Shown in pieces: positions 3 through 32,886 of a DNA stretch of 42,664 bases. Source of the DNA: an archaeon (GTDB lineage Archaea > Iainarchaeota > Iainarchaeia > Iainarchaeales > JAAZKV01); NCBI GenBank assembly GCA_037141515.1, contig JBAXCL010000001.1, positions 1 to 42,664 of the forward strand. Direction: 5' to 3'. How positions within the stretch are numbered: the first letter of the stretch is position 1; each line of letters starts with the position of its first letter. Both the position numbers and the translations under genes were made by a program. Under the pieces are notes generated by a model that did not search any database, was not told where the DNA came from, and saw only the letters and a program-made list of their open reading frames with translations.

Positions 3-1037
3 TTAGTTTATGGTGACTATCATTTTTTGGACTACTCTTTTGACGGTGCAGAAAGCGGTGCTGAAAGTAGTGAATTTTTAAGTAGTGCCGAAGGAGTTAA
101 CTTAACGCCTATTGGCGACAATTTATATTTAAGTGCGGAAGGCAATCTTTACAGATATGTAGAAGGGGGTTATTATGATAATAACGAAGAATATTTTAGT
201 GCTGACGGGGAAAACTTCTATAACGCTAAAGGAGAAAAGGTTGGAAAAGCATTTAAGTCTGTTGGAAAAGGGATAGGCAAAGGTTTTAAAGCCATTGGAA
301 AAGGATTTGTTAAGGTTGGTAAATTTATCGGAAAGGTTGCTAAAAAAGTTGGCAGAGCCGTTGTTAAAGCGTCCAAAACGGTAGCAACAGGAGTAAAAAA
401 GACAGGTGCAAAAATAAAAGACGGTGCAAAAAAATTAGTACACCATAAAACAAAAGAAGAGAAGCAAAGCGATTGGGAAGATAGGAACATAAAGCAAGGT
501 AACAGGCAAGTAGCGAGAGATAAAAGGGTAAAAGAACATAACGAGAAGAAAGCAAAAAGAGAAAAGGAAATTGCAGACGCAAAGGCGAAAGGACAAACAC
601 CTCCACCTCCATTACCTCCGTTACCCCCTTTACCTCCGCCAACGGCAGAAGAAAAAAAAGCAGAACAAAATAAAACTCCAAACGATACAGGGAAAGACGT
701 TTTTACAAAAGAATTACCTCCCGCAACACCAAGCACACCTCCTCAAAATGTTGTAGAGGTGGCGGGGCAAAAGTTTGACGCAACCGACATACCAAAAGGC
801 AAAGAAATTGTTGAAACGGTGGACGGAAGTGGCAAAAAAATAGCGGGAGTTGAGTTTGCACCCGAAGAGGTTGTTGCCGTACAAGGTGCGGACGGTAATA
901 TTGAATACTACACACCCGAAAGTGTTAGCGGAATGAGTAAGGGTATGAAAATGGCACTTATCATTGGTGGCTCTGTGTTAGTTCTAGGTATTATTGGTTT
1001 TATTATTTATAAATCAAGAACAGGAAAAGGGAAATAA
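3..1037 (+). CDS. 5'-truncated ORF: acidic Y-x-A-[DE]-G repeats, Lys-rich centre, PPLPP tract, GMSK-type C-terminal membrane anchor
   Basis: Frame is open from nt 3 to the window edge (track ORF 27..1037 begins at a TTG). Ends GMSKGMKMALIIGGSVLVLGIIGFIIYKSRTGKGK, the same tail anchor as ORFs ending 5415, 5996, 15287, 29274. Stop overlaps next ATG (TAATG). Confidence 0.7.
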   Translation, partial: LVYGDYHFLDYSFDGAESGAESSEFLSSAEGVNLTPIGDNLYLSAEGNLYRYVEGGYYDNNEEYFSADGENFYNAKGEKVGKAFKSVGKGIGKGFKAIGKGFVKVGKFIGKVAKKVGRAVVKASKTVATGVKKTGAKIKDGAKKLVHHKTKEEKQSDWEDRNIKQGNRQVARDKRVKEHNEKKAKREKEIADAKAKGQTPPPPLPPLPPLPPPTAEEKKAEQNKTPNDTGKDVFTKELPPATPSTPPQNVVEVAGQKFDATDIPKGKEIVETVDGSGKKIAGVEFAPEEVVAVQGADGNIEYYTPESVSGMSKGMKMALIIGGSVLVLGIIGFIIYKSRTGKGK

Positions 1038-1165
1038 TGGCAGAAGAAACTAAAGACCAAAAGAAAAAAAGAAGCACAACAAAGGTAGCAATCATTGTTG
1101 GCGGACTTATCCTTGCTTTAGGGATTACTGCGTTTGTTATATTAAAATACAAGTCTAAAAAATAA
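1037..1165 (+). CDS. 42-aa single-pass membrane mini-protein
   Basis: Below track cutoff. ATG overlaps upstream stop (TAATG). MAEETKDQKKKRSTTKVAIIVGGLILALGITAFVILKYKSKK = basic N-term, one hydrophobic helix, basic end. Confidence 0.5.
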   Translation: MAEETKDQKKKRSTTKVAIIVGGLILALGITAFVILKYKSKK

Positions 1166-1171
1166 ATAAAA

Positions 1172-1270
1172 ATGGAGTTTAGAAACGACAAATTAAGAGG
1201 TAAAATTTTTGGAACTATTGTAATCTTAGGAGGTATAGGAATGTTAATTTACGGAGTAACAAAAAAATAA
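1172..1270 (+). CDS. 32-aa single-pass membrane mini-protein
   Basis: Below track cutoff. A-rich leader aaataaaaATG. MEFRNDKLRGKIFGTIVILGGIGMLIYGVTKK. Short, so tentative. Confidence 0.4.
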   Translation: MEFRNDKLRGKIFGTIVILGGIGMLIYGVTKK

Positions 1271-1277
1271 TAAAGAA

Positions 1278-1772
1278 ATGGAAACAAAAATAATCAAAGG
1301 TACAGCACAAAAAAGCAATGAACAAATAGAAGGGTATGTTTTCCCTTCTTTTTTAAAAGATTTTCCAATTCCTTCAAAAATTTTATTTGCGCCAAACTTC
1401 ACCCCTATTTTATACAAAGTAGAAAACGGTAAAATTACTTCGCAAAGCAAAGAGGTAGCCCCAAGAAGTGTTAATGTTGTAGGTGTTATTGGTAATGGAT
1501 TGTTATTAGACAATGGTTTAGCTTTAACTCAATACGACCCAACAGGCTCGTTTATGTTAATTTCTAAAGACTCAATATCAGGAAATTTATCTAACAATTT
1601 AACAGGTGAATATAAATTTAATTCTTTGTTTGGCATAATAGGGTTAGCAGGTGGAGTTTATTTTGCACATAAAAAGAAGAAGGGGAATTGGGGGTATGTA
1701 GGCTTTGGTTTACTTGGACTAATTGCAGGGAATATTATTGGCACTCAAATATCAAAACTAACAAAAAAATAA
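1278..1772 (+). CDS. hypothetical membrane protein, two C-terminal Gly-rich helices
   Basis: 164-aa track ORF. LFGIIGLAGGVYFAH and GFGLLGLIAGNIIG hydrophobic segments near the C-terminus. Overlapping antisense ORF 1244..1513 rejected. Confidence 0.7.
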   Translation: METKIIKGTAQKSNEQIEGYVFPSFLKDFPIPSKILFAPNFTPILYKVENGKITSQSKEVAPRSVNVVGVIGNGLLLDNGLALTQYDPTGSFMLISKDSISGNLSNNLTGEYKFNSLFGIIGLAGGVYFAHKKKKGNWGYVGFGLLGLIAGNIIGTQISKLTKK

Positions 1773-2738: not shown

Positions 2739-2852
2739 ATGAAAAACATTTTAGGTGCTCTAGTTGTGATAGGTATTGGCGTTTTAGTTTACAACCAATA
2801 CAATAAGCACAAAAAAGAGTTAAAAAAAGTTCAAGTAAAAAAAGACAATTAG
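2739..2852 (+). CDS. 37-aa N-terminally anchored mini-protein
   Basis: Below track cutoff. MKNILGALVVIGIGVLVYNQYNKHKKELKKVQVKKDN. Fills the 2728-2854 gap exactly. Confidence 0.5.
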   Translation: MKNILGALVVIGIGVLVYNQYNKHKKELKKVQVKKDN

Positions 2853-2854
2853 CA

Positions 2855-3286
2855 ATGAATTTTAGCACAACTCATAAAGTATTAATAGGCGGAACTGCGG
2901 TTGTAGTTGTAGGCGTAATCGGTTATTTATTGTATCAAAACTACAAGAAACCAAAAATAGCAGATACAACTCCAACAGGCACTTCGGAAAAGCCTTTAGA
3001 CGCAAATGCTTTTTTAAGTCTTTTCGCTGACGCTTCAAAAAAACCGTTGACGGATACTCAAAAGAAAGCGTTTTTTGATATGTATAATACTTTATCGGAC
3101 AAAGAGAAATTTGCTTTGACGGATATTGTAAAAATACAGATAGACTGTATAAAAAGCAATCCTACTGACCCTATGAAGGCATTTGGTTGTATTGCTCAAG
3201 GCTCTCAAGGTCTAGTTGCTAAATACGGTGAAGATACACTTAAAAGCGTGGGTGAAAAAAGTAACGCTTTATTTAAAGCGAAATAA
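2855..3286 (+). CDS. hypothetical protein with N-terminal signal-anchor
   Basis: 143-aa track ORF. VLIGGTAVVVVGVIGYLLY helix at residues ~9-27, then a soluble helical-looking domain. Confidence 0.75.
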   Translation: MNFSTTHKVLIGGTAVVVVGVIGYLLYQNYKKPKIADTTPTGTSEKPLDANAFLSLFADASKKPLTDTQKKAFFDMYNTLSDKEKFALTDIVKIQIDCIKSNPTDPMKAFGCIAQGSQGLVAKYGEDTLKSVGEKSNALFKAK

Positions 3287-4850: not shown

Positions 4851-5033
4851 ATGACAACGAAAAAAAAGATTATAATAGGTGTAAGTGTAGCGTTAGGTTT
4901 AGTGGTTGCACACGCATTAATAGGCAAAGACAAAAACGAAGGCAGAAGCAAGTACGGTTTGAAAGTTTACAACTTAATTAAGCACGGTAAGTTCACGGAC
5001 AAAATGGAAATCAAAGCAATTACAAATAAGTAA
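4851..5033 (+). CDS. 60-aa N-terminally anchored small protein
   Basis: Track ORF. KIIIGVSVALGLVVAHALIG helix directly after MTTKKK. Confidence 0.6.
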   Translation: MTTKKKIIIGVSVALGLVVAHALIGKDKNEGRSKYGLKVYNLIKHGKFTDKMEIKAITNK

Positions 5034-5037
5034 GAAA

Positions 5038-5415
5038 ATGAAAATACAAACTGCATACCCTATTATCATTAATAAAAAAAGGGTTAATCCGAGAGATTAT
5101 TATTTAAACGCAAACGACACTCCCGCAACAACGCCTACACAGGCTTTAGTTGACGAGAATAAGAAAAAAGGTCTTAATTGGGACAAAGCAAAAGGCATTT
5201 GGGTAAAAGCAAATGAAAGCGGTATCGTTGATAGCGTTTTAGATATTTTTGGACTAGGTAAAAAAGACCCTACTCCTCCTCCTGTTGAAGTTACAACAAC
5301 AACAACAAAAAAAGAAGGTATGAGTAAAACTACGAAAATGATTATCGTGGTAGGTGCTCTAGCGTTAGTTGGTGGTATTATTTATTATTCAACAAAAAAT
5401 AAAAAAGGAAAGTAA
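5038..5415 (+). CDS. GMSK tail-anchored protein, paralogue of next ORF
   Basis: N-terminus MKIQTAYPIIINKKRVNPRDYYLN parallels MIVKTTYPIIVNSKRVSPKDYYLN of ORF 5415. Ends GMSKTTKMIIVVGALALVGGIIYYSTKNKKGK. TAATG overlap with next ORF. Confidence 0.78.
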   Translation: MKIQTAYPIIINKKRVNPRDYYLNANDTPATTPTQALVDENKKKGLNWDKAKGIWVKANESGIVDSVLDIFGLGKKDPTPPPVEVTTTTTKKEGMSKTTKMIIVVGALALVGGIIYYSTKNKKGK

Positions 5416-5996
5416 TGATAGTAAAGACGACATATCCGATAATCGTTAACAGTAAAAGAGTTAGTCCAAAAGACTACTACTTGAACATTGATGCCAAAAA
5501 CAAAGAGGAAGTTAAAGCCTTTCAGCGTTATGCGGTTTCAAGAGGTGTAAATTTAGACTACATTAGCAAGTCAACGAAAAAATTAGTTTCGGGTGAAAAT
5601 GCAATAGACGGTGAGTATGGTGTAAAAACCCTAAACGCATATAAAACGTATGGTGCAGAGTGGGAAAAAAGCAGAGCAACGACACCTACGCCGACACCAA
5701 CACCTACACCAACACCTACGCCGACACCAACACCAACACCTACGCCTACTGCGGACGAAACCAAAAAGGACGAGGTTAAGGTAACGAAAGACGACAAAGG
5801 AAATACTACGACAGAAACTAAAAAGGCTGACGGAACTACAACTACGGTTGTTACCGACAAAAACGGCAAGGTTATCTCTAAAAAAGAGAGTGGAATGTCA
5901 AAGAAATTAAAAATGGGACTAATTATCGGTGGCGGAGTATTAGTTCTTGGCATTATTATATTCGCCATAACAAGAGGAAGTAAAAATAAAAAATAA
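5415..5996 (+). CDS. GMSK tail-anchored protein with PG_binding_1-like segment and (Thr-Pro)n linker
   Basis: EEVKAFQRYAVSRGVNLDY...IDGEYGVKTLNAYKTYG fits the peptidoglycan-binding repeat pattern (..LQ..L...DG.[FY]G..T). 24-residue TP repeat. Anchor GMSKKLKMGLIIGGGVLVLGIIIF. Confidence 0.8.
   Translation: MIVKTTYPIIVNSKRVSPKDYYLNIDAKNKEEVKAFQRYAVSRGVNLDYISKSTKKLVSGENAIDGEYGVKTLNAYKTYGAEWEKSRATTPTPTPTPTPTPTPTPTPTPTPTADETKKDEVKVTKDDKGNTTTETKKADGTTTTVVTDKNGKVISKKESGMSKKLKMGLIIGGGVLVLGIIIFAITRGSKNKK
5679..5750 (+). repeat. coding (ACN-CCN)12 Thr-Pro microsatellite-like repeat
   Basis: acg aca cct acg ccg aca cca aca cct ... read directly. It explains the antisense (GV)n ORF 5558..5968. Confidence 0.9.
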
Positions 5997-6017: not shown

Positions 6018-6806
6018 ATGCACACGATATACGAAAGTGGAAACAGACCAATGACATTAAATATTACAATAACTTGTAATGGAAAGAAGCGTTTTCGTGT
6101 TTGGTCGGAAGAGTTAAATAAAAAAAATAGCAAGTACGCAAGTAGAGAGATAGACGTTGAGAACACTAGAGAGATACAATTCTCTTTCCCTGTTTCTCCA
6201 AAGAAACTTTTTATCGGGTGTATGAATGTTCAAAATCCTAATGACCAAAGTTTTGACGTTAAAATTGAAGAAACCCCACTAAAGAAATACAATATTTGGA
6301 TTGACAAAGAAACAGAAGACTTTGTTCAATTGGCTATCAATTTCAGTCAAGTTTGCGGATTTGAAATGCCTAAAGCAAAAGGCACTATTTACCAAACGCC
6401 CGACGCTAAATTCAATATTAAATATTTCCCTGTAATTAAAGATTTCGTTTCGGGACAAATATTGAGTACACCCGCTAGAATTGGACACAATTCGGGTATC
6501 ATTGAAACGAGTGCGATTAAATTTATGCCGTACACTATTCCTATGCGAATGATGATACTTTTACACGAATTTTCACACAAGTACAAAAATTCTAAAATTG
6601 GTTTACAAGTTTCTAACGAATTTGGGGCAGATATTAACGCATTATATATATATTTGGGACTTGGATTTTCAAAAATTGACGCTATCACAGTTTTTGCCAA
6701 AGTGTTCTTAAAAGCACAGACAGACGGCAACATTCAACGTATGCGTAAAATTTTGGATTACATAAACAAGTTTGAAAATAAGGAGTATGCACAATTATTA
6801 AGTTAA
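6018..6806 (+). CDS. hypothetical protein with HExxH motif (putative Zn-metallopeptidase)
   Basis: 262 aa. Only recognisable motif is MMILLHEFSHKY, with a Glu 14 residues later (SNEFGAD). 1-nt and 0-nt gaps to the next two ORFs suggest co-translation. Confidence 0.7.
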   Translation: MHTIYESGNRPMTLNITITCNGKKRFRVWSEELNKKNSKYASREIDVENTREIQFSFPVSPKKLFIGCMNVQNPNDQSFDVKIEETPLKKYNIWIDKETEDFVQLAINFSQVCGFEMPKAKGTIYQTPDAKFNIKYFPVIKDFVSGQILSTPARIGHNSGIIETSAIKFMPYTIPMRMMILLHEFSHKYKNSKIGLQVSNEFGADINALYIYLGLGFSKIDAITVFAKVFLKAQTDGNIQRMRKILDYINKFENKEYAQLLS

Positions 6807-6807: not shown

Positions 6808-7983
6808 ATGACAGAGCCAACTAACACATACAATCAAAATAGTTATGAACAGGAGTTAAACAGTTTTGTTAACAACGGTTACGATAACTATGATAGCGAG
6901 GAATACTACGACGCAGAAGGCGACGAAGAGGACGACGACTTGTACGAGGAAGACGGTGACGGCGAAGAATATCAAGTAGTAAGTAAATTTGGTGGAGAGG
7001 TTGACCAAGAGCAAGAGGATTTAGACGACTATGTTTACGATATTGATTTTAGTCAATTTAACGGTAGCGACTTCAAGAGTTCTCTTAACGGAGTAAACAG
7101 AACGGTAAACAAAAAAAGAAGCCAAAGAACACCCGTTAAGCGAGTTATCGTACCAAAAGGTAGAAAAGTTATAGTTGAGGGAAATAAAAGACCAAGTTCA
7201 CCGAGAGTTGCACCAAGAAGTGCAAGTCCGACTAGAAGAATGGTTAAACCAATTAGAAGCGGAGGAGTGCCGAGTTCAAGACAAGTGCCTGTTCAAGAAA
7301 ATCAAAGTGCAAGAATTATCGGCAACGGTAGAGGTGGCACAACTAAACGTATTATCGTACCAAGCAGTCAGAAAGTAATCGTTGAGGGCGTAGATAAATT
7401 TATTTTAAGTAAGGGCAAACAAGAGGATAATGTAAAGAATATCGGCTACTACAAGGGTAAAAAACTACGAGAGTTGATTTTGACAATGAATAATAATTCA
7501 GCGTTAGATTTCAATGTTGAGTTATTTAACCCGTCAGAGCCTTTGGATTATTTATTCTCAACTTCGGGCAACTTAAACAACAAAATACAGGTTGCGGGTG
7601 ATATTGTTAGTTACTCTGACGTATTGTTTAATATCCTAGCAAACCCTACTCACTTAGTTAATGCGAAATTCACATTTTCGGGTGCTACATACCAAAGTCA
7701 AATCAATCAGCCGTTAATCTTCAAAAATAAGAGAATAACAGGAGAGCAACTTGTCGAGCCAATGCAATTAGCGTTGAAAGTGGATAATATGCAAGTTATT
7801 CAAGAGATTGTATTCTTTGATATTTACAACAGTTTGAACAGACCTTTTATTCCTAATGGAATGGACGTTATTCAGTATAAAGTTTTGGCGGGTAACACGG
7901 TTACTTTTGCCTTTTATTACGAACAAAAAGATTTACGAAAATTCTTTTTTAAAGAAGCAAGAGAAAGTAAAAAATTATTATAA
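6808..7983 (+). CDS. tripartite protein: acidic N-term / Arg-Lys-Pro-rich duplicated centre / beta-rich C-terminal half (structural candidate)
   Basis: 391 aa. EEYYDAEGDEEDDD. Duplicated unit KRVIVPKGRKVIVEG (aa 111-125) / KRIIVPSSQKVIVEG (aa 180-194). C-terminal ~170 aa alternate hydrophobic/polar like a beta-sandwich. Confidence 0.8.
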   Translation: MTEPTNTYNQNSYEQELNSFVNNGYDNYDSEEYYDAEGDEEDDDLYEEDGDGEEYQVVSKFGGEVDQEQEDLDDYVYDIDFSQFNGSDFKSSLNGVNRTVNKKRSQRTPVKRVIVPKGRKVIVEGNKRPSSPRVAPRSASPTRRMVKPIRSGGVPSSRQVPVQENQSARIIGNGRGGTTKRIIVPSSQKVIVEGVDKFILSKGKQEDNVKNIGYYKGKKLRELILTMNNNSALDFNVELFNPSEPLDYLFSTSGNLNNKIQVAGDIVSYSDVLFNILANPTHLVNAKFTFSGATYQSQINQPLIFKNKRITGEQLVEPMQLALKVDNMQVIQEIVFFDIYNSLNRPFIPNGMDVIQYKVLAGNTVTFAFYYEQKDLRKFFFKEARESKKLL

Positions 7984-9897
7984 ATGGGACAGTTATTCAC
8001 ACAAAAATATCCAAATAATATCCGCACCGTATCGGGGTTGATAAATATTGTTAAGCAAGACGACGTTGTTTTGCTTTGTGATACTTCTCTAGGTGCGGTA
8101 GTAATCGAATTGCTATCTATTCCCGAAAATTATTGGAGTACTCAATACAAATTATATATTATTGACAAAAGCAATAATGCTAGTGCTCACAGTATAACGG
8201 TTGTTGCACCTCTAGGATTTAAAATAAACGCAAGTTCTACGGCAGTAATAAGCACTAACGGTGGTAGTTTATATCTTTCTGTTTGTAGTAATACTGACTA
8301 TATAGGAGTTGCGGGAGGAAGCGGTGGTGGAGTAGGCACATACAACACCGTTCAAGACGAGGGAATTTCCTTACCTAGTCGTACAACTATGAACTTTGTC
8401 GGAAAGGGTGTTACCGCAACTGACGACGGAACAAAAACAGTAGTCACCGTAAATGGTGGTATTATTGCTTTGACTAATGCAAGTATGATTGCTTTGGTTG
8501 TAGCGGGTACTGTTATTGAAGGGCAATTATATCAGATTACAGACCCTTTGAACGCTGACGGTGGCGTTATCGTTCAAGGTATTGCAAATAACGGAATAAC
8601 AACAACTGCGGGTAGTGGTATATTTTTAAACGCAGACTATCAAGGCACGGGCGATTATTCGGGAGTTAGTGGTTATACGGGTTTTTTAGGTATATGGTCG
8701 GTGAATGTTTTACCTGTTGTTGTTGGAAAGGTAGTTATTTGGTATAACAGACATTATAAGAACTTAACAGGCGTTTGGGGTACTGACCCTACTTTAGACA
8801 CAACAAATTGGCAACTTTTACCAAAAACAATAACAAACGGCTACAAGCGTGTTTTTGATTTTGTGAGATATGATTTGTATTCAAATAAAGTAGTTTATAG
8901 AGCAGACGCAAATGGAAACGAGGTAGATTTTTTTGAAGGGGCAAAAGGCACAAGTGCTTTAAGGGATTTCCAATGGGGAAGAAGTGTGGTAATGTTTAAC
9001 AAGGTTTTAGGTGGTGGTTTAATGGTCGCAACTAACAGTTCTTGTTCTTATTTTTGGAATGTAGTCACTAGCGGTGGGGAAATTAAAGATACAACTCCTA
9101 CACCACCTCCCGCTCCTGTCCCGCATTTTGGGTTAATAAGTAACAATTCAGTAACCTCAAGTGGTCAGATTTTAATGATTTCTTGTTATGGAACTGTTCA
9201 AGGTAACAATGTCGCTTCGGGAGGTACAATTAATTTAAAGTGCAACATAGATTTTAATAGCGGTATTTATAATAATAATTGTTTTAGTAATTCTAAATTT
9301 GAGTTTAACGGAACTGTTATTAATACTACTATCGCAAGTTGTACGACAACGCAAGGTGGTCTATTTGGTTTTACTAACCCGCTTACGAATACTATAATCG
9401 GTACAACCGAAGTTTCAAATAATAGTATTTTGAACGCAACTATCAGTACGTTTAATATGGAACAATGCGAAGTGAATGACGAAGGTTTAATTAATTTAAC
9501 TTCGGGTAGCGTATTTCTTCGCAAAAAATATAGGACAGGTTATAGTAATTGGGAACAGGTTTTAGACTTAACTAACCCTAGTATATTTTCAGCAAATACA
9601 CTTACGATACCTACGGCATACGCTTACGTTGGAATATTCACAACTAGCGGTAGTGGATTAACTATAAATAAAATATTGAATATGCCTAGTAGTCATAAAT
9701 GCAAGTTCTTACCTAAGCCAACTGAAAACACAAGTTTCACACACACTTTGGTTGCTAGTGCAGTATCGGGAAATTTGCTTTGTGACGTACCTTCTAGTAC
9801 GAATTTAATTACAGGAAGACTTAATGGCTCTGATTTTATAGAATATGAGTTAAGTGGAGATTTGAATGTAAGAACAAATTTAGTTTTACTAGCGTAA
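7984..9897 (+). CDS. fibre/spike-like protein with N-terminal 'CDT' adaptor domain
   Basis: 637 aa. VLLCDTSLGAVVIELLSIP...KLYII matches 5 other ORFs. One copy of the VQDEG..RTTMNFVG.GV repeat (8341-8460). GGSGGGVG and TPTPPPAPVP linkers. Asn/Ser/Thr/Gly-rich C-terminal part typical of beta-helical fibres. Confidence 0.82.
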   Translation: MGQLFTQKYPNNIRTVSGLINIVKQDDVVLLCDTSLGAVVIELLSIPENYWSTQYKLYIIDKSNNASAHSITVVAPLGFKINASSTAVISTNGGSLYLSVCSNTDYIGVAGGSGGGVGTYNTVQDEGISLPSRTTMNFVGKGVTATDDGTKTVVTVNGGIIALTNASMIALVVAGTVIEGQLYQITDPLNADGGVIVQGIANNGITTTAGSGIFLNADYQGTGDYSGVSGYTGFLGIWSVNVLPVVVGKVVIWYNRHYKNLTGVWGTDPTLDTTNWQLLPKTITNGYKRVFDFVRYDLYSNKVVYRADANGNEVDFFEGAKGTSALRDFQWGRSVVMFNKVLGGGLMVATNSSCSYFWNVVTSGGEIKDTTPTPPPAPVPHFGLISNNSVTSSGQILMISCYGTVQGNNVASGGTINLKCNIDFNSGIYNNNCFSNSKFEFNGTVINTTIASCTTTQGGLFGFTNPLTNTIIGTTEVSNNSILNATISTFNMEQCEVNDEGLINLTSGSVFLRKKYRTGYSNWEQVLDLTNPSIFSANTLTIPTAYAYVGIFTTSGSGLTINKILNMPSSHKCKFLPKPTENTSFTHTLVASAVSGNLLCDVPSSTNLITGRLNGSDFIEYELSGDLNVRTNLVLLA

Positions 9898-10342: not shown

Positions 10343-10351
10343 AAAACGAAA

Positions 10352-21435: not shown

Positions 21436-21446
21436 ATAAAAAAACA

Positions 21447-22163: not shown

Positions 22164-22166
22164 AAA

Positions 22167-22902: not shown

Positions 22903-22903
22903 T

Positions 22904-22934: not shown

Positions 22935-22960
22935 TGCCATAACCTTTAAAAAAAATAAGT

Positions 22961-23212: not shown

Positions 23213-23222
23213 TTTTAAATAA

Positions 23223-24707
23223 ATGCTATTAAAGGTATCGGGTACATATAACGTATTAGCCAATTTAGGCTTCACTCAACTCCAACAAAATGAGTTGTAT
23301 TTTGAGTGCGATACTTCGGTAGCACCCGTAACAATTATAATCCCTCAAATTTCTGACTTTGGCGGGTACTTAAATACAAAAATTTATGTATCCGACTTGT
23401 CTAATAACGCCTTTAATAATAATATCACAATAATACCTTCGGGTGGCGATACTATTAATCAAGGTGGCGGGGTTGTTATTGACATAAACAATGGCACGTT
23501 TGCTTTTTGGATTGCTAGTACAAGTCAATGGATAGGATTAGATAGTCATACCTATACTTCTACCGCTTACTACACTATTGAGGACGAGGGAACTCCCGTA
23601 GTACAAAGAACAACAATGAACTTTGTAGGTGACGGCGTTTCCGTTTCTGACGTTAGTGGAAAAACGCAGATTGACATTCCTATTCAACCCGCATACGCTA
23701 CAATTCAAGAAGAGGGCGTTTCAGTTACCCAAAGAACTACAATGAATTTTGTTGGTGACGGCGTTACAGTTTCCGACAATGGCGGTAAAACGCAAGTTAA
23801 TGTTCCTATTCAACAAGCATATACAACAGTTCAAGACGAAGGCACGTCTGTTACGCAACGAAGCACACTAAATTTCGTTGGTGACGGTGTTACTGTTTCC
23901 GACGTTGGTGGTAAAACGGAGGTTAATATGCAATCGTATTACACTACCGTTCAAGAGGGGGGTGTTTCGGTTACTCAAAGAAGCACAACTAATTTCGTTG
24001 GCGACGGCGTTACTGTTTCTGACGTTGGCGGTAAAACGCAAGTTAATGTCCCTATTCAACCCGCATACGCTACAATTCAAGACGAAGGTGTGGCTTTGCC
24101 ACAAAGACAAATCATAGATTTTCAAGGATTAGGTGTTCAAGCACAAGACGTTGGCGGAAAAACGGTTGTTACTGTTTTATCGGGACTTCCCGCTACTGTT
24201 TATGGATTATATTCACAAACCGCAAACAGTTTTCCTGTCACGGCGACAATAGTGGAGGGAACTCTAATAGGTGCGGGTGTAGGAACATTATCAGTACCCG
24301 CAAATGGCTTTTTTGTTGGTGGAAGTTTTAACGCTAAATTGAATGGTCATATTTCTTGCGTTGGAAGTGCTACCATACAAGTAAAAATTAAGGCAAATTC
24401 AGTAGTTTTGGGCGATACGGGTATTATCGCACTTGATACAACAACTAATAAACATTGGCAACTTGACTTAAATTTTACAATTAGAAGTATTGGTGGTGTT
24501 GGTGTAGGGTCAATAGTATCATCGGGATTTTTTGGTTATATTAAAAATGCGGGAACTAATTTTGAAGGTGCAAATTTTATTACAATAAATAATACCACAT
24601 TTGATACTACTATATTAAACACACTAGTTGTAACGGCTCAATGGAATACAACCAATGCGGGGAACTCAATTTATTCTGATATTTTCGTATTAAATAAAAT
24701 ATATTAA
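23223..24707 (+). CDS. fibre/receptor-binding-like protein: 'CDT' adaptor domain + five 40-42-aa tandem repeats + C-terminal beta-rich domain
   Basis: 494 aa. LYFECDTSVAPVTIIIPQISDFGGYLNTKIYV. Repeats Y-x-T-[IV]-[QE]-[DE]-[EG]-G-x-x-[VL]-x-Q-R-[ST]-T-x-N-F-V-G-D-G-V-[ST]-V-S-D-x-[SG]-G-K-T-[QE]-[IV]. Confidence 0.88.
   Translation: MLLKVSGTYNVLANLGFTQLQQNELYFECDTSVAPVTIIIPQISDFGGYLNTKIYVSDLSNNAFNNNITIIPSGGDTINQGGGVVIDINNGTFAFWIASTSQWIGLDSHTYTSTAYYTIEDEGTPVVQRTTMNFVGDGVSVSDVSGKTQIDIPIQPAYATIQEEGVSVTQRTTMNFVGDGVTVSDNGGKTQVNVPIQQAYTTVQDEGTSVTQRSTLNFVGDGVTVSDVGGKTEVNMQSYYTTVQEGGVSVTQRSTTNFVGDGVTVSDVGGKTQVNVPIQPAYATIQDEGVALPQRQIIDFQGLGVQAQDVGGKTVVTVLSGLPATVYGLYSQTANSFPVTATIVEGTLIGAGVGTLSVPANGFFVGGSFNAKLNGHISCVGSATIQVKIKANSVVLGDTGIIALDTTTNKHWQLDLNFTIRSIGGVGVGSIVSSGFFGYIKNAGTNFEGANFITINNTTFDTTILNTLVVTAQWNTTNAGNSIYSDIFVLNKIY
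23565..24176 (+). repeat. five tandem ~126-nt (42, 42, 40, 42 aa period) coding repeats
   Basis: Units start near aa 116, 158, 200, 239/240, 282 of ORF 23223. The last unit is the most diverged (IIDFQGLGVQAQD). Confidence 0.9.
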
Positions 24708-24742
24708 ACAAAAACAAAAACAAAAAACAAACAGAAAAAGTT

Positions 24743-25087
24743 ATGGCAACTTCAACAATAGATAGTGCAGTACTAGAAAGGCACTTAAAAAGAACAACAC
24801 TTGTGAGTAACGTCGTAAGTGTTATTATCGCACTAGCAGTTTCTTTATCTGCGGGGTACGGGTTTTATTACAAAACGACAAACACATTACAAATTCACAC
24901 AACTCAAATTGAAGAGGTGAAAACAAATGTAGAAACATTGACCGATAAGGTTAATAATTCGGCAATTTTTCAAGGTGCGAGTGCAGAGCAAATGAAATCT
25001 TTAGAAACGCAAGTTACTGACGTTAAAAGTTCTCAAGTTCGTATTGAAGAGAAGTTAGACCGACTTATTATGAAAAGTGCAAAGTAG
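24743..25087 (+). CDS. membrane-anchored coiled-coil protein
   Basis: 114 aa. LVSNVVSVIIALAVSLSAGYGFYY helix, then heptad-like TQIEEVKTNVETLTDKV...VTDVKSSQVRIEEKLDRL. Followed by a strong terminator. Confidence 0.7.
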   Translation: MATSTIDSAVLERHLKRTTLVSNVVSVIIALAVSLSAGYGFYYKTTNTLQIHTTQIEEVKTNVETLTDKVNNSAIFQGASAEQMKSLETQVTDVKSSQVRIEEKLDRLIMKSAK

Positions 25088-28003: not shown

Positions 28004-28384
28004 ATGACACGAAGAGCAAAAATAGTATTAGGGATAACGATTGCCGTCATAGTCGGAGGAATATTCGGCTACAAAGCCTACAAGAAAAAGAAAGACGAAA
28101 AGAAAGCGGAAGAGGACAATTCGCCTAAAGTTGAAGTGCCTAACGCATACGAAGTGGCTAAAAAAACTTTGCCTAACGGTAAAGAAGTAAATGATAGTTA
28201 TGTTGTTTCGGTTGCTAACGAGGGTAAAGACCCTATTGCTTTGCGTTTTTACAAGAACAACAGGGTTGCTTTCTCCATAAAAGGTAAACTAGAAAGTATG
28301 GGTACTTACTCTGACGGCGGTAAAACAAAGCCAACAATTAAGATTAAGTTTGATAATGGTAAAACAATGAATTTCGGACTATGA
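28004..28384 (+). CDS. N-terminally anchored hypothetical protein
   Basis: 126 aa. ATG immediately follows the stop of G. IVLGITIAVIVGGIFGY anchor. ATGA overlap with next ORF. Confidence 0.7.
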   Translation: MTRRAKIVLGITIAVIVGGIFGYKAYKKKKDEKKAEEDNSPKVEVPNAYEVAKKTLPNGKEVNDSYVVSVANEGKDPIALRFYKNNRVAFSIKGKLESMGTYSDGGKTKPTIKIKFDNGKTMNFGL

Positions 28385-28770
28385 GAAAAAAAATAGAAAA
28401 GCGTTCGTCAAGAGAGTTGTTGGCTGACAAAACATTTAAGGCACTTGCTAGTGGAAGTCGTAAGTCAAAAAAATATGCAACAATAGAACTTGCAAACGGC
28501 ACGAAGTTTCGCCGTAGAAACGCAAATCAAACGGGTGACGTAGAAGGCGGTATTGTTTACTCTGAAAAAAGACCGAACAGGACTGATAGAAAGGGTAGTT
28601 CAAAGCCTACTCAAAGCACTCAAGGTAAAAGTAGAAGCACTCGGACTACTCGGACTACTCGTACCCGTAGAGCACCCAATACGACTACAAAAGCACCCAA
28701 TATGTCAAACACTTTGAGGTTTTTAGGAGTAGAATTTAAAAAATATAACTATACAATAGGAGGTTTATAA
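28381..28770 (+). CDS. Y-x-I-G-G-L tail-tag family member H: small, extremely basic protein
   Basis: 129 aa rich in R/K/T/S. STRTTRTTRTRR is encoded by a 9-nt repeat (28639-28668). Ends VEFKKYNYTIGGL-stop. Confidence 0.78.
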   Translation: MRKKIEKRSSRELLADKTFKALASGSRKSKKYATIELANGTKFRRRNANQTGDVEGGIVYSEKRPNRTDRKGSSKPTQSTQGKSRSTRTTRTTRTRRAPNTTTKAPNMSNTLRFLGVEFKKYNYTIGGL

Positions 28771-28937
28771 TGGACGAAACAAAAGAGCAATACAGAAAAG
28801 CATACGAACTAGCACAAGACCCTAAGAAACAAAAAGAAGCAGAAGATAAAATGAATGCTTTTTGGGTTACGTTAAAAAAGAAATATCCTAATGCGGATAT
28901 GGTTAAGGTTAAAGGATTTATGGACGGAGTTTATTAA
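28770..28937 (+). CDS. 55-aa soluble small protein
   Basis: Below track cutoff. TAATG overlap with H. MDETKEQYRKAYELAQDPKKQKEAEDKMNAFWVTLKKKYPNADMVKVKGFMDGVY. Confidence 0.45.
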   Translation: MDETKEQYRKAYELAQDPKKQKEAEDKMNAFWVTLKKKYPNADMVKVKGFMDGVY

Positions 28938-28959
28938 TAACAATCAAACAAAAACAAAA

Positions 28960-29274
28960 ATGGCAAAATATGAATTTATTAAGAAGGTTGGCTCTTTTAA
29001 AATAGGAGAAATTGTTGATGGGACTGAAATCAACAATAAGTGGGGAACGGGAATTAATTTTTCTAATAGGGACGGCTCAAAGGCATTTGCTCAACTTACG
29101 TCAAGTGAACCTAATTATCCTCCAACAGTAAAAAAAATCGAAGAAAAAAAGGCAGAGGATACCACTTCCGATAGTGATAAAATAATGGGAATGAATAAAA
29201 AACTGTTCTATGGATTGGTTGGAATAACAGTTTTGGTTGGTGGGTATTTTATTTACAAGAAATTTAAAAAGTAA
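28960..29274 (+). CDS. tail-anchored protein (GMN variant of the GMSK anchor)
   Basis: Start moved from 28891 to aaaacaaaaATGGC at 28960, because the extension overlaps ORF 28770. Ends IMGMNKKLFYGLVGITVLVGGYFIYKKFKK. Confidence 0.7.
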   Translation: MAKYEFIKKVGSFKIGEIVDGTEINNKWGTGINFSNRDGSKAFAQLTSSEPNYPPTVKKIEEKKAEDTTSDSDKIMGMNKKLFYGLVGITVLVGGYFIYKKFKK

Positions 29275-29279
29275 AAAAA

Positions 29280-29360
29280 ATGGCAAAGTATACTATAAAA
29301 AGAGGACTTTTGGTTGTTCTGATACTAACAATATTAGTAATATTCACAACTAGGCTTTAA
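29280..29360 (+). CDS. 26-aa hydrophobic mini-protein
   Basis: aaaaaaaATGGC leader. MAKYTIKRGLLVVLILTILVIFTTRL. Ends 1 nt before next ATG. Very short, so tentative. Confidence 0.35.
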   Translation: MAKYTIKRGLLVVLILTILVIFTTRL

Positions 29361-29361
29361 A

Positions 29362-30393
29362 ATGGCAGTAAAAACGGTAAATAAAAAAACAAAAGACGTT
29401 ACAAAAACACAGGCGTTCAAAGATTGGTTTGGCGACAGTAAGGTTGTTGACAAAAAGGGGAAGCCTTTGGTTGTTTATCACGCTACTACCCAAAAATTCT
29501 TTGAGTTTGACCGTGAGAGAGGTAACGCAGAGGGGTGGTTTGGTTTGAGTTTTTATTTTACAGACAGTTTATTGGACGCTACTAACAACTACTTGTCTAG
29601 CGGTGCTGATTTAACTAACCGAATAGAAAGGTTAACCGACAGGTATTCAAGTAAACTAGAGGACGAATACGACGATATTATTGACGATAAAAAAAGTATT
29701 GCAAAAGAGTACGGATTAACACCTAATCAAGTTACCGCTTTAGGCGACTTTAGGAGTTTAGCGAAACACCTTGCAAAAAAGGAATTAAAAGGCGAATACG
29801 AATTAACGCTACCGTTCTATTTGAGTTTACAAAACCCTTTGGATTTAAGACGTACTTATTACGACGCACAGGAGGTTTATAACGAAGAGGACGATAGTTA
29901 CGAGGATAACGGAGATAGTTTACCTAACAGACTGTATGAAGCAATAAGGGTTATTTCGTATGACGATTATTTTAACGAGTACAACAATATAGACTTTCAA
30001 GAGGTATTTGACGATATTGCTAGTGGTATAGATTATCAATGGGACGGGACAAGTGCCTACTCTGTTGACAAATCTTTTAGAAGTTCTAATGCTTTGGCGG
30101 ATATTGGCGACGAATATGGCAACTCTGTTTCGTATGAATTTATAAGAAGAGTTTACGAGGAAATGGGTTTTGACGGTATTGTTATGGACGCAGACCTTGA
30201 GTTCGGAAGTCGTAAAAAAATGGGTAAAAGTATGGTTATGGACGAGGGGACAACGCATTACATAGCGTTTGAGCCAAATCAAATGAAACTAGCAGACGGA
30301 ACAAATATTTCTTTCAATAAAGACACTAACGATTTCCGTTATGAAAAAGGCGGAAAAATGACTACTTTTGTATATGAAATTGGCGGACTATAA
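29362..30393 (+). CDS. Y-x-I-G-G-L tail-tag family member I: ADP-ribosyltransferase-like domain of the polyvalent-protein type (ART-PolyVal-like)
   Basis: FKDWFGDSKVVDKKGKPLVVYHATTQKFFEFD ... WFGLSFYFTDS ... MGFDGIVMD ... HYIAFEPNQMK matches my recollection of the ART domain of phage/conjugative-element polyvalent proteins. Ends YEKGGKMTTFVYEIGGL-stop. Confidence 0.85.
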   Translation: MAVKTVNKKTKDVTKTQAFKDWFGDSKVVDKKGKPLVVYHATTQKFFEFDRERGNAEGWFGLSFYFTDSLLDATNNYLSSGADLTNRIERLTDRYSSKLEDEYDDIIDDKKSIAKEYGLTPNQVTALGDFRSLAKHLAKKELKGEYELTLPFYLSLQNPLDLRRTYYDAQEVYNEEDDSYEDNGDSLPNRLYEAIRVISYDDYFNEYNNIDFQEVFDDIASGIDYQWDGTSAYSVDKSFRSSNALADIGDEYGNSVSYEFIRRVYEEMGFDGIVMDADLEFGSRKKMGKSMVMDEGTTHYIAFEPNQMKLADGTNISFNKDTNDFRYEKGGKMTTFVYEIGGL

Positions 30394-30403
30394 AATAATA
30401 AAA

Positions 30404-30562
30404 ATGGAAAAATCAACTAGAAACTTATTAATAATTATTGGAGTGGTTGCGGTAGGTGTTACTGCGTACTATTTTTACGATAAAAATAAAAAGAAAAAAA
30501 ACCTGTCTTTAGGTGTAACGGCTGACAGTAAAAAAAATACAGTAACATTCACTAGAAGTTAA
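30404..30562 (+). CDS. 52-aa N-terminally anchored mini-protein
   Basis: Start moved from 30368 (inside the tag codons of I) to ataaaaATGG at 30404. LLIIIGVVAVGVTAYYFY helix. Confidence 0.5.
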   Translation: MEKSTRNLLIIIGVVAVGVTAYYFYDKNKKKKNLSLGVTADSKKNTVTFTRS

Positions 30563-30681: not shown

Positions 30682-31347
30682 ATGGCAGAAACTAACATAA
30701 AAATACCCTCAATTAACAAGTCTTTCTACGATACAGTTTCGGCAAAGGCTAACCAAGAAAAGATTAAGAACGTCATACGTCCTAAATTCGGTGAGATAAT
30801 CAAAAGAATGTCGGGGTATTCTAACGTGCCTACCGAATTAATTGAAAGTTTTATTTTCATTGAGAGTGGCGGAAACGCAAATGCACAATCTCCCTATGCA
30901 ACGGGGTTAATGCAATTAAACGGTGCTACCGCTTCCGACACAATAGTTAAGGAAAAAGGTGCGGGACGGCTTTCGGCGGAAGAGGGTGCAATCCTTAAAA
31001 AGTATTTAGGTAGTCGTTACACTATGGTTGAGGGCGTTAAACCTAAACAAACTTCTCTAGGAAAAACATTCATAACGAACGACGACTTATTGAAACCCGA
31101 ATTTAATGTTTTAGTAGGAACAATGCTTCTGAAACAATTAATGGACGAGTTCACGGGTGCTGACGGAAAAATCCGTATGGACAAGGTTATCGTTATTTAC
31201 AACGGTGGTCGCTACGGTAAAGTTGCAAAAAAAGTAATCCCGTTTCAAGGCACAACAGAGGACTTAATAACCCAAGTTCCAAAAGAAACTTCTTCATACA
31301 TTTTGAAGTTGTTAGGAACGCAAGGTATTTTAGATACAATGGTATAA
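30682..31347 (+). CDS. SLT-domain lytic transglycosylase
   Basis: ELIESFIFIESGGNANAQSPYATGLMQLNGATASD = catalytic E-S ... G-L-M-Q signature of soluble lytic transglycosylase domains. YNGG further downstream. Confidence 0.82.
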   Translation: MAETNIKIPSINKSFYDTVSAKANQEKIKNVIRPKFGEIIKRMSGYSNVPTELIESFIFIESGGNANAQSPYATGLMQLNGATASDTIVKEKGAGRLSAEEGAILKKYLGSRYTMVEGVKPKQTSLGKTFITNDDLLKPEFNVLVGTMLLKQLMDEFTGADGKIRMDKVIVIYNGGRYGKVAKKVIPFQGTTEDLITQVPKETSSYILKLLGTQGILDTMV

Positions 31348-31361
31348 TAAAAAATAAAAAA

Positions 31362-31610
31362 ATGAAATTGAAAAACTATTACAAGCCAACCCCTAAAAAG
31401 TGGAGAAAGTTTGGCGACGCAATTTTGGTTACAGGTACTTTTATTACAGGTATCGTATTGGTTGAATTTGACAAATTGAAAGAGGTTTACTCTATCGAAA
31501 TGTTGAGGTGTATGATTGGTGGTGCTATGGTATTAGGTGTGGCGGGTAAATTCCTGTCAAACTTCTTTGCCGACGACACAGTTCCAACTCCAACTGATAA
31601 TGAAAAGTAG
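31362..31610 (+). CDS. two-helix small membrane protein (holin candidate)
   Basis: 82 aa. ILVTGTFITGIVLVEF and MIGGAMVLGVAGKFL helices. Charged C-terminus. Sits between SLT and the endolysin and overlaps the endolysin start by 11 nt. Confidence 0.6.
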   Translation: MKLKNYYKPTPKKWRKFGDAILVTGTFITGIVLVEFDKLKEVYSIEMLRCMIGGAMVLGVAGKFLSNFFADDTVPTPTDNEK

Positions 31611-32205
31611 CGATTGGCTTTACAAATACAGATTTGCTATTGGCGGTGGATTAGCACTCGCAATAGTTGGTGTTGTTGTTTATTTAAACAGAAGACGAAT
31701 TAGAAAACTAGGAAGCGACGTTATGGAATATGCACAAAATAAAGTATGGGACACGGTGTCGGAAAGAAATATTGAACGATTGCACCCCAAAGTAAGAGAT
31801 AAAGCAAGAGAGTTTATTAACAGAGTTGAGAAAGAACTAGGTATTAAACTTCGTGCGACAAGTACGCTTCGTACATACGCAGAACAGGACGAATTGTATG
31901 CTCAAGGACGAACGAAAAAAGGCGGTATTGTAACTAACGCAAGAGGAGGTCAAAGTAATCATAACTTCGGTACGGCGTTGGACGTTGTGCCTATTGTGAA
32001 CGGTCAAGCGGATTGGAAAACAAGTGCCGACACTTGGAGTAAGATTGCAAAAGTAGGCAAGGCGGTAGGATTTGATTGGGGCGGTGATTGGAAGTCAATT
32101 GTTGATAAACCTCACTTTGAAATGAATTTTGGAAACTCGTTGGCTCAAATGCGTCAGAAATACGAAAGCGGTCAGCGTGACGGAGATTATATAAAACTAG
32201 CGTAA
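31600..32205 (+). CDS. peptidase M15 (VanY / L-Ala-D-Glu peptidase-type) endolysin with N-terminal signal-anchor
   Basis: LHPKVRDKAREFI...TSTLRTYAEQDELYAQGR...GQSNHNFGTALDVVP...WGGDW...DKPHFE = Zn ligand set H..D / H of the M15 family. N-terminal FAIGGGLALAIVGVVVYL suggests SAR-like export. Start moved from 31537 to ATG 31600. Confidence 0.85.
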   Translation: MKSSDWLYKYRFAIGGGLALAIVGVVVYLNRRRIRKLGSDVMEYAQNKVWDTVSERNIERLHPKVRDKAREFINRVEKELGIKLRATSTLRTYAEQDELYAQGRTKKGGIVTNARGGQSNHNFGTALDVVPIVNGQADWKTSADTWSKIAKVGKAVGFDWGGDWKSIVDKPHFEMNFGNSLAQMRQKYESGQRDGDYIKLA

Positions 32206-32540
32206 TGAATATAGATAAAAAAACAATAGCGATAATCGTACTTTCAATTGCTTTGGCAGTTGTTTCGTGGATTGCTTACAAACCGCAACCTACATACGAT
32301 AATAGTTTAATAGAAAGTCAATTACAGGAACTTAAAGATAAGAATAGACTTATGGGCGGTTATATTCTTTACGTTGAGAAAACGGCGTTTTTGAAGCAAC
32401 AAAAGATTGACAGTTTAGAAAGTTTAAAACCAAAAATAGAAATAATATATGTTAACAAATTCAAAGAAATTGACAACGCTAGTGCTAATGTTATTGCTAG
32501 TGAGTTCAAAGGTATTTTCGCAAAAAGTAATGTTAAATGA
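32205..32540 (+). CDS. i-spanin-like protein (N-terminal TM + coiled coil)
   Basis: 111 aa. IAIIVLSIALAVVSWIAY, then LIESQLQELKDKNRL...KQQKIDSLESLK. TAATG overlap with the endolysin stop. Confidence 0.65.
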   Translation: MNIDKKTIAIIVLSIALAVVSWIAYKPQPTYDNSLIESQLQELKDKNRLMGGYILYVEKTAFLKQQKIDSLESLKPKIEIIYVNKFKEIDNASANVIASEFKGIFAKSNVK

Positions 32541-32886
32541 TAAAGGCGACACGACGATTTGCTTCACGGTTGGTCAGAGTAAGTACCTTTTAAAAGAACA
32601 CTACGCACTAGAAAAATGCGATACCTTAAAAAGTATCTGTGAGCAACAAAGGTCGCTTTGCGATAGTGTTATTGCTGATAAAAACAAAATAATTAATGCT
32701 AAAAATTTTATGCTAGATAATCAAAACACAATGCTCAAACTAAAACAGTATGAGGTTGATAAATTAACGGAACAATTGAATGTTTGCAATAAGGAAGTCA
32801 AAAAACAGAAGACTTACAAATGGATTGCAATAGGTAGCGGTATTGCCGTTTCTTTATTTTCGGGGTATTACATTTTAACACACTAA
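32449..32886 (+). CDS. Cys-containing coiled-coil protein with C-terminal TM, overlapping previous ORF out of frame (spanin-partner / u-spanin-like topology)
   Basis: From ATG 32449 the N-terminus KKLTTLVLMLLLVSSKVFSQ looks like a signal peptide, but there is no lipobox Cys. Alternative start ATG 32530 gives an 11-nt overlap only. C-terminal WIAIGSGIAVSLFSGYYIL. Confidence 0.6.
   Translation: MLTNSKKLTTLVLMLLLVSSKVFSQKVMLNDKGDTTICFTVGQSKYLLKEHYALEKCDTLKSICEQQRSLCDSVIADKNKIINAKNFMLDNQNTMLKLKQYEVDKLTEQLNVCNKEVKKQKTYKWIAIGSGIAVSLFSGYYILTH

Follow-up and report, generated by a model that had tools for sequence, protein, structure and literature searches.

What kind of element devotes about half of a long gene series to small membrane proteins? 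The question is raised by contig JBAXCL010000001.1 of GenBank assembly GCA_037141515.1, all 42,664 bases of which were analysed and are called the window here (contig C1 of its bin; GC about 36%). Its genes run on the plus strand from position 3 to 34,367 and then on the minus strand to the contig end, and the plus-strand series, here called the module, is rich in open reading frames (ORFs) with one or two hydrophobic helices. The answer that we favour, with somewhat better than even confidence, is that the module belongs to a large non-tailed double-stranded DNA phage of Bacteroidota that follows the plan of PRD1 and STIV, and that it encodes internal-membrane, vertex or spike, entry and lysis proteins. 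An internal-membrane architecture like that of PRD1 or PM2 had been proposed in a first-pass annotation made from the letters of the DNA, and it gains support from a B204-like ATPase, from a lack of tailed-phage hallmarks in all searches, and from a conserved backbone of membrane proteins.

The membrane-protein density itself was estimated with two hydropathy rules. The strict rule uses a 19-residue window with a mean Kyte-Doolittle (KD) value of at least 1.6, a Hessa sum of at most 2 and at most one charge in the core, and the lenient rule a 17-residue window with KD of at least 1.5 and no core charge. Of 57 plus-strand ORFs listed by hand between 27 and 34367, 19 have a transmembrane (TM) helix by the strict rule and nine more by the lenient rule only, a total of 28 (49%), which bears out the first-pass count by eye of about 30 membrane proteins among about 60 ORFs. 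Among the 29 ORFs then given as examples, named here by their start positions, 26 pass the lenient and 18 the strict rule; 3303, 3826 and 21447 fail, the first with two Gly-zipper-like amphipathic helices at its C-terminus that stay below the thresholds and the other two with short or weak helices. Eight of the TM ORFs are mini-ORFs of 26-52 aa, each little longer than its one helix.

For comparison, the same automatic ORF caller and predictors were applied to control sequences (shares given as strict/lenient). The plus strand of the window reaches 31%/43% and its minus strand 7%/14%. In the 146-kb relative G5 the syntenic module (67-104 kb) has 35%/48%, the remainder of the contig 7-11%. Tailed phages lie lower, with 5%/11% in lambda and 10%/14% in Flavobacterium phage 11b, and the other contigs of the bin show 19%/22%. 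PRD1 reaches 18%/29% over its whole genome and 57%/100% in its late membrane-protein cluster; PM2 shows 14%/23%. When residues of the window ORFs were shuffled 200 times, a mean of 1.7/4.1 of 51 ORFs (maximum 5/8) scored as TM. The density is real, local to the module, well above chance and above the 5-14% of the tailed-phage controls, as had been claimed, and it is within the range of the PRD1 late cluster.

The short ORFs are not a product of the genetic code chosen. In the standard code about 98% of the plus strand is coding, and stop-codon recoding was rejected, as reading TGA, TAG or TAA as sense changes little and leaves the short ORFs unmerged. The membrane proteins fall into a tail-anchored class with Pro/Thr linkers and a GMSK motif before the anchor (3-1037, 5038, 5415, 14760 and 28960), an N-anchored class (2855, 4851, 10352, 12632, 22399, 24743, 28004, 30404, 31600 and 32205) and a class of Gly-zipper hairpins (3303, 12402 and 1278). 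About four membrane ORFs, between 31362 and 32886, look like an ordinary lysis cassette; the remainder need another explanation.

Relatives of the module help to decide what this explanation could be. They comprise seven IMG/VR contigs of 51-146 kb, parts of an 87-kb ENA contig and 21 kb of a 235-kb NCBI contig, and the contigs that carry them, of 51-235 kb, are binned with Saprospiraceae, Chitinophagales and Flavobacterium. Homologues in at least three of 11 related contigs were found for 15 of the 28 membrane ORFs and for four of the 29 non-membrane ORFs (by BLAST without composition correction, with which some low-identity tail-anchor matches may be inflated). Because it is the membrane proteins that form the conserved backbone of the module, they fit structural parts better than a fast-changing arsenal directed at the host envelope.

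The module is syntenic in the seven IMG/VR contigs and in contigs of metagenome-assembled genomes (MAGs). The common order starts with replication and recombination genes, followed by large acidic or polyvalent-type proteins, the small ATPase, a very conserved protein of about 250 aa and four tail-anchored membrane proteins. The series of the window comes next (3303, 5038/5415, 6018, 6808, fibre, 9920, 12402, 12632, 14040, 22167, 22399, 22961, 24743, 30404, 30682, 32449), and then the switch to oppositely transcribed genes. Ten ORFs between 1858 and 33206 of the window that end in YxIGGL have no counterpart in the relatives and occur within the bin on C1 only; as lineage-specific inserts they separate the conserved membrane genes.

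The ATPase and the 250-aa protein of this order lie outside the window, and both were found in its bin, a fragmented set of 270 contigs (1.30 Mb, 86% complete). A tblastn search with the proteins of the relatives identified contigs C46 (1-7897) and C2 (1-27720) as parts of the same phage, bringing its DNA in the bin to at least 78 kb, with the window as the middle of a larger genome. The 7.9-kb C46 encodes the 250-aa protein and the four tail-anchored proteins, 92-98% identical to those of the ENA relative. It abuts the left end of the window, where its last gene precedes the truncated first ORF; the 5' part of this gene (3-1037) continues on C46 and in a relative (L013). The 27.7-kb C2 carries the ATPase, two shorter paralogues of the 250-aa protein and a Sno-type helicase of 1508 aa, and was recognised as phage DNA because its large ORF is a phage helicase.

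The ATPase is a P-loop protein of 275-285 aa and the most conserved gene of the lineage, with 512 family members at 62-81% identity to the one of G5 that was modelled. In the phage of the window it is encoded at C2:1068-1895(-) as a 275-aa protein, 81% identical to the copy in relative G3. It contains a Walker A motif of the form GxQGVGKT, a LIFDTNGEY motif, which we take to resemble the DPHGEY motif of HerA, and LVLED; its Pfam matches stay below threshold (HerA/DUF87 7e-4, TrwB 0.011). Searched as a profile against the sequences of the PDB the family has no match, and hhalign against the P9 proteins of PRD1 and PM2 aligned the Walker A region only. More informative is the AlphaFold2 model of the G5 protein (pLDDT 84). 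The top 12 matches of this model in a Foldseek search of the PDB are all B204, the genome-packaging NTPase of STIV or STIV2 (E 3e-8 to 6e-7, probability 1.0, TM-score 0.60-0.67 on the target), followed by the N-domain of Zot and by HerA, and no terminase is found among the top 50; the protein also has no nuclease domain. By its model, the ATPase is of the B204-type (FtsK/HerA) fold class, the packaging class of membrane-containing icosahedral viruses and not of tailed phages. A distant homologue with 28% identity occurs on a 22.8-kb contig of a Candidatus Woesebacteria MAG (LCET01000007.1, L054), in a bin of the candidate phyla radiation; the family may extend beyond viruses of Bacteroidota.

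Searches for the genes of a tailed particle gave a consistent picture. PHROG and Pfam scans found no terminase, portal, HK97 capsid or tail gene in the window and the bin, and related contigs totalling about 550 kb also yielded no gene for a terminase, portal, HK97 capsid, sheath, tube, baseplate or tape measure. Six hallmark Pfam families are missing from the seven IMG/VR contigs (530 kb in all); Terminase_6N, Terminase_6C and TerL_ATPase, as well as Phage_portal, Portal_T4 and Phage_capsid, are absent from the bin and/or these seven contigs. Likewise, the precomputed Pfam matches of the left arm of the close ENA relative (1.6-69.7 kb) include no tailed hallmark, and PHROG scans of relatives G1, G2 and G5 gave none among the best 25 families listed, bar one weak match of the ATPase (4e-6). 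The first-pass annotation had suggested searching the rest of the genome for a double-jelly-roll capsid and an FtsK/HerA-type ATPase versus terminase, portal and HK97 capsid. The former type of ATPase was found, on C2, and the three tailed-phage genes were not; the double jelly-roll was not found either, and in its place stands a candidate of the size of a single jelly-roll.

This candidate is the protein of about 250 aa, encoded 2-10 kb downstream of the ATPase and followed by the four tail-anchored proteins and then by the genes of the window. It is the second most conserved gene of the lineage (61-84% identity among relatives) and combines an acidic, aromatic-rich N-terminus with a conserved core of about 150-190 aa. 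Its profile collects 829 clusters from 1.84 billion representatives, most of 170-280 aa and a few with two or three tandem copies. Members of the latter kind (P0382, P0408, P0426, P0433, P0442, P0471 and P0498; 320-574 aa, with two or three copies of a core of about 150 aa) are possible fused double or triple barrels.

A distant paralogue lies in the window itself, at 6808-7983 (hhalign probability 82%, E 1e-5), in a family of 670 proteins, some of them from Flavobacterium and Chitinophagales MAGs. Its model is a jelly-roll-like β-sandwich whose fold matches are all weak (best PDB E 3e-3) and include coats of satellite and plant viruses, PRD1 P3 (rank 33), lectins and C1q-like domains. A Foldseek search of this model against viral models gave collagen/C1q-type matches through the disordered part and the β-sandwich and was set aside as uninformative. 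For the 250-aa family, hhalign against P3 and P31 of PRD1 or P2 of PM2 detected no capsid similarity. This family is a candidate for the capsid protein, of single-jelly-roll size, with weak fold evidence for its paralogue. An aromatic motif, [FY]-x-A-[DE]-G-[DE] (for example YDAEGD or YSADGD), recurs in the acidic N-termini of 27-1037, 6808-7983, 14760-15287, 21447-22163 and the capsid candidate on C46; common to membrane-anchored and jelly-roll-like proteins, it may be a shared signal for assembly or binding.

The ends of two relatives give an idea of the form of the genome. In G5 the first 48 nt (L024:1-48) recur inverted and identical at 146152-146199 (L031), 17 nt from the other end, and in G7 the first 111 nt (L068:1-111) recur in the same way at 64052-64162 (L071), 622 nt from the other end. 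The two come from different samples, and several contigs from different samples end at the same syntenic point; genes run inward from both contig ends, as in PRD1. This suggests linear genomes with inverted terminal repeats, of which G5 (146 kb) and G7 (65 kb) would be nearly whole. In the window itself neither tRNAs nor a direct terminal repeat were found. Replication genes present in the relatives include those for a DnaB helicase, a clamp-like fusion, clamp-loader-type ATPases, RecT, RusA and exonucleases.

The host of the phage is bacterial, as indicated by four peptidoglycan enzymes, by translation starts without Shine-Dalgarno (SD) sites and by the binning of the relatives named above. 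Starts in the window have A-rich leaders, and SD-like sites precede 9% of them, as in the bin (9%); the absence of SD sites is the Bacteroidota pattern. A search for a link between window and bin of the kind left by CRISPR spacers found none, and the shared 20-mers are low-complexity sequence only.

Taken together, these parts can be arranged in a scheme for which the assembly route of PRD1 (PMC6356626) serves as the model. The dense set of one-helix and two-helix proteins, with its tail-anchored and N-anchored members, Gly-zipper hairpins and mini-proteins of 26-52 aa, would be the phage-encoded protein complement of a vesicle. These proteins would enter the cytoplasmic membrane of the host, and a patch enriched in them would pinch off and scaffold the capsid proteins, that is, the 250-aa family of C46 and its paralogues including 6808-7983, presumably as jelly-rolls. 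The particle would thus enclose lipid, with the module's membrane proteins seated in it. Vertex or spike proteins that share an N-terminal anchor domain (7984, 20297 and 23223) would then attach, and the small FtsK/HerA-type ATPase of C2 would drive the linear genome through a vertex that spans the membrane. Peptidoglycan enzymes, some anchored and some soluble (13357, 30682 and 31600), would serve entry and, together with the cassette at 31362-32886, lysis.

Several points weigh against such a phage. Both membrane predictors are home-made hydropathy rules, FtsK/HerA ATPases also have roles other than packaging, and the ATPase lacks a Pox_A32 match in Pfam. The 250-aa family has no match among PDB sequences or to the capsid proteins of PRD1 and PM2 in profile and hhalign searches, and the weak fold matches of 6808 are as much lectin-like or C1q-like as capsid-like. 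The inverted end repeats could be assembly artefacts. In a tailed jumbo phage the head and tail genes would be unassembled or too divergent, the ATPase would have another role, and the membrane set would act on the host envelope in superinfection exclusion, lysis control, membrane remodelling or receptor masking. We consider this unlikely, yet it accounts for a number of observations: no genome is proven complete, with CheckV estimates of 27-74% for the related contigs (74% for G5, 57% for G7), and no DNA polymerase of family A, B or protein-primed type was found in the seven related contigs, from which DNA_pol_B_2 is absent, or in the ENA relative (L073-L075), which may point to missing sequence. 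Weaker matches in the right arm of G5 may be hidden beyond the best 25 PHROG families listed. Furthermore, the ATPase (284 aa) weakly matches a PHROG labelled terminase large subunit (4e-6), the fibre-like proteins weakly match PHROGs labelled tail fibre, and a cassette with holin-like and spanin-like genes is ordinary in tailed phages. What speaks against a tailed particle is that about 550 kb, including a 146-kb contig with inverted end repeats, hold no hallmark gene, and that the right arm of G5 has almost no ORF big enough for a head-tail module. The ATPase, at 275-285 aa and without a nuclease, matches the fold of B204 and not that of a terminase, and the membrane proteins are the conserved core of the module and not its variable part.

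Density and conservation are silent on where the membrane proteins end up, so that they could instead build or remodel an intracellular compartment or an assembly platform for a lipid-free virion, a role for which tail-anchored proteins with long linkers would be suited as tethers. This is improbable in our view, as a single co-oriented block holds the membrane genes intermixed with those for fibres or spikes, the capsid candidate and the ATPase, and to our knowledge every described bacterial or archaeal virus with an ATPase of B204/P9 type has an internal membrane. Least credible, and in our judgement very improbable, is a non-viral conjugative or mobile element in which the small membrane proteins, the transglycosylase and the FtsK/HerA ATPase make up a pore for DNA transfer. 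Type IV systems do unite ATPases of this family, an SLT transglycosylase and numerous small membrane proteins, and the polyvalent-protein domains ART-PolyVal and LPD23 are found in conjugative elements too. But Pfam searches of the large ORFs of the window and of 1.6-69.7 kb of the ENA relative found no VirB4, coupling protein, relaxase or Tra family of Bacteroidota, and the size of the ATPase is far below that of VirB4 or VirD4. Phage-like gene content is seen in the endolysins, fibres, homing endonucleases, thymidylate synthase and NAMPT, the linear contigs have inverted ends, and the relatives are classed as viral in IMG/VR.

A non-tailed phage with an internal membrane remains our preferred reading, and it leads to a broader proposal that we regard as evenly balanced: a widespread, undescribed lineage of high rank, comprising non-tailed, membrane-containing Bacteroidota phages of 65 to more than 200 kb with an ATPase of B204/P9 type and a new capsid family of single-jelly-roll size that also occurs as tandem fusions. 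A full-text search of the literature found no description of large non-tailed phages of Bacteroidota. All phages known to us with genomes above about 35 kb are tailed, and known membrane-containing phages have genomes of 10-20 kb. In its abstract, a 2026 review introduces jumbo phages as Caudoviricetes (PMC13359090). If the proposal is true, 'jumbo' phages would for the first time be known that are not tailed, and their size would be several times that of every phage with an internal membrane known so far. Bacterial viruses built like PRD1 and STIV would then have evolved genome gigantism, as have the related viruses of eukaryotes. The capsid family might preserve a living series from single to double jelly-rolls. 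The lineage would also explain abundant 'dark' contigs in pipelines that rely on terminase, portal and capsid markers (829 clusters, 512 ATPase proteins), chloroform-based virome protocols may lose such phages, and many new small membrane proteins, anchored cell-wall enzymes and spike families would become available for study.

The individual parts of the module are collected in Table 1.

Table 1. Parts of the module and the arm that borders it, in window coordinates
Feature	Coordinates	Strand	Remarks
Tail-anchored membrane protein, 5' end cut by contig start	3..1037	+	Acidic N-terminus, basic Gly/Lys region, poly-Pro linker, GMSKGMK, C-terminal helix
Two mini-ORFs (42 and 32 aa), about one membrane helix each	1037..1270	+	Homologues of 1037 in G5, G7 and L011
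37-aa mini-ORF and 143-aa N-anchored protein	2739..3286	+	Mini-ORF kept in 4 relatives
171-aa conserved protein, two Gly-zipper-like C-terminal helices	3303..3818	+	In 10/11 related contigs; putative membrane association
60-aa N-anchored ORF and two tail-anchored proteins (125 and 193 aa)	4851..5996	+	Pro/Thr linkers, GMSK motif
Candidate zinc metalloprotease	6018..6806	+	Invariant HEFSH motif; highest conservation within the module (52-70% identity to the 10 more distant related contigs); large family
Candidate vertex/minor capsid protein	6808..7983	+	Acidic disordered N-terminus, conserved β-rich C-terminal domain of about 210 aa
Fibre or spike protein	7984..9897	+	N-terminal about 130 aa common to 11105, 11537, 11966, 20297 and 23223
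140-aa C-anchored protein and 162-aa N-anchored protein (10352)	9920..10840	+	
Three tandem copies (131-133 aa) of the fibre N-terminal domain alone	11105..12361	+	
74-aa two-helix Gly-zipper protein and 240-aa N-anchored protein	12402..13354	+	74-aa protein in 8/11 relatives; Gly/Ser/Thr-rich linker in 240-aa protein
Soluble GH19-like muramidase or endolysin	13357..14040	+	PHROG endolysin 9e-21; Pfam Glyco_hydro_19 5e-6
238-aa C-anchored conserved protein, 175-aa tail-anchored protein, 35-aa mini-ORF	14040..15399	+	
Soluble cassette genes ending in YxIGGL (15401, 16846, 18705) and ligase-like ORF (18014)	15401..20273	+	Lineage-specific, non-membrane, absent from relatives
Second fibre block (20297, 23223) with membrane proteins 21447 (weak), 22167, 22399 and 24743	20297..25087	+	22399 N-anchored, LEA_2-like; conserved 83-aa ORF 22961
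N-anchored 28004 (126 aa), tail-anchored 28960 (104 aa), mini-ORF 29280 (26 aa), N-anchored 30404 (52 aa)	28004..30562	+	Includes 29362, soluble tagged ART-PolyVal enzyme
Soluble lytic transglycosylase (SLT)	30682..31347	+	Pfam SLT 1.9e-11; PHROG lytic tail protein 4e-10; 69% identity to G5
Probable lysis cassette	31362..32886	+	82-aa two-helix holin-like ORF, N-anchored M15/VanY peptidase 31600, overlapping ORFs 32205 and 32449
Oppositely transcribed arm	34400..42664	-	Methyltransferase, 446-aa ATP-binding-type protein, small ORFs; membrane-protein-poor

Few of these proteins resemble anything described. Among 30 window proteins searched against PHROGs and Pfam, matches are limited to 13357, 30682, 31600, 29362, the minus-strand methyltransferase and one minus-strand family of unknown function; 6018-6806 has no Pfam, PHROG or PDB match. 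The DNA of the window has no match in 50,697 GenBank phage records, and a tblastn search of the same records with 6018, 6808, the ATPase and the capsid candidate was equally negative. The sole window protein with homologues in GenBank phages is the 446-aa protein encoded at 36846-38186 (-), at 28-35% identity in YuA-like siphoviruses of Pseudomonas and Bordetella and in a 462-kb uncultured phage; the record of one homologue terms it ATP-binding. The arm in which it lies (34400-42664) is outside the module and sets its right border.

The earlier suggestion that peptidoglycan-active proteins are themselves anchored in the membrane holds in full for 31600, which has an N-terminal helix and an M15/VanY domain (Pfam 1.5e-16). 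For 10352 and 14040 the helix stands and the link to peptidoglycan is not confirmed: the PG_binding_1 match of 10352, whose helix is N-terminal, is non-significant (E 0.069), and for 14040, with its helix at the C-terminus, a GH108 identity found no support and no hydrolase domain was detected, as it has no Pfam, GH108 or PDB sequence match. In the cassette at 31362-32886, ORFs 32205 and 32449 each combine an N-terminal helix or signal with a coiled coil, in a layout like that of a spanin pair; the holin and spanin roles are putative, from this layout.

Some observations concern the soluble inserts and the surroundings of the relatives. The ligase-like ORF at 18014-18691 (+), between two YxIGGL-tagged genes, has a weak DNA_ligase_A_M match (E 0.011) and a KLNGSN motif that we presume to correspond to motif I of RNA/DNA ligases. 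Linkers of the form [YF]AKG[GS] are present also in large untagged proteins of G5 (111576-115536), and the conserved HEFSH protein 6018 is a candidate for the enzyme that cuts them. Neighbouring genes in the relatives carry the polyvalent-protein domains LPD23 and DUF6496. A second 6018-like gene, 40-46% identical to the copies of the relatives, lies on bin contig C198 (2-514), a sign that the sample may contain another phage of this lineage that is more distantly related. Finally, a 19-kb relative (L037) sits inside a published giant-virus MAG (IMGVR_UViG_GVMAG-S-1045057-15_000001), probably through mis-binning, and may contaminate gene catalogues of eukaryotic giant viruses.

How does this phage compare with known systems? 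Like PRD1 and PM2 (Tectiviridae and Corticoviridae), it has small one-helix proteins clustered in the late region, a small packaging ATPase of the FtsK/HerA class, spikes with a common N-terminal anchor, and a transglycosylase and a muramidase among the virion or lysis genes. With PRD1 it also shares inward transcription from both ends and probably a linear genome with inverted terminal repeats, as suggested by G5 and G7. The differences are considerable. The genomes are at least 65-146 kb, with one relative on a 235-kb contig, as against 10-15 kb, and there is no sequence similarity to P3, P31 or P9 of PRD1 or to P2 or P9 of PM2 beyond Walker A. The capsid candidate has the size of a single and not a double jelly-roll, and the replication and accessory genes include those for a DnaB helicase, a clamp, RecT, a Sno-type helicase and polyvalent proteins. 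Tectiviridae replicate a linear genome of about 15 kb with a terminal protein and a protein-primed family B polymerase, whereas no such polymerase was found here. On our reading the phage shares the build of PRD1 and PM2 at 5-15 times the genome size and is no relative of theirs in the sense of a family.

STIV and STIV2 provide, with B204, the best structural match of the ATPase, and STIV has an internal membrane and turret-like vertices; its host is archaeal, however, its genome is circular and of 16-17 kb, and the ATPases are only 11-17% identical, the one described here having an additional helical C-terminal part of about 70 aa. In gene layout there is a likeness to the membrane-containing Helvetiavirae (Sphaerolipoviridae and Matsushitaviridae, for example P23-77), which have two single-jelly-roll capsid proteins: here too, paralogues of single-jelly-roll size lie by an FtsK/HerA-type ATPase among many small membrane proteins, in genomes 4-10 times larger. 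With jumbo Caudoviricetes (>200 kb), those of Bacteroidota included, the phage has in common its size class, several fibre genes, homing endonucleases and many auxiliary genes, such as those for NAMPT, phosphoribosyl pyrophosphate (PRPP) synthetase, thymidylate synthase and RNA ligase, but searches detected neither a terminase, portal or HK97 capsid nor a sheath, tube or baseplate, and its packaging-type ATPase is of another superfamily. The build is one that is already known, and it is the genome size, the family of the capsid candidate and the host group that are new.

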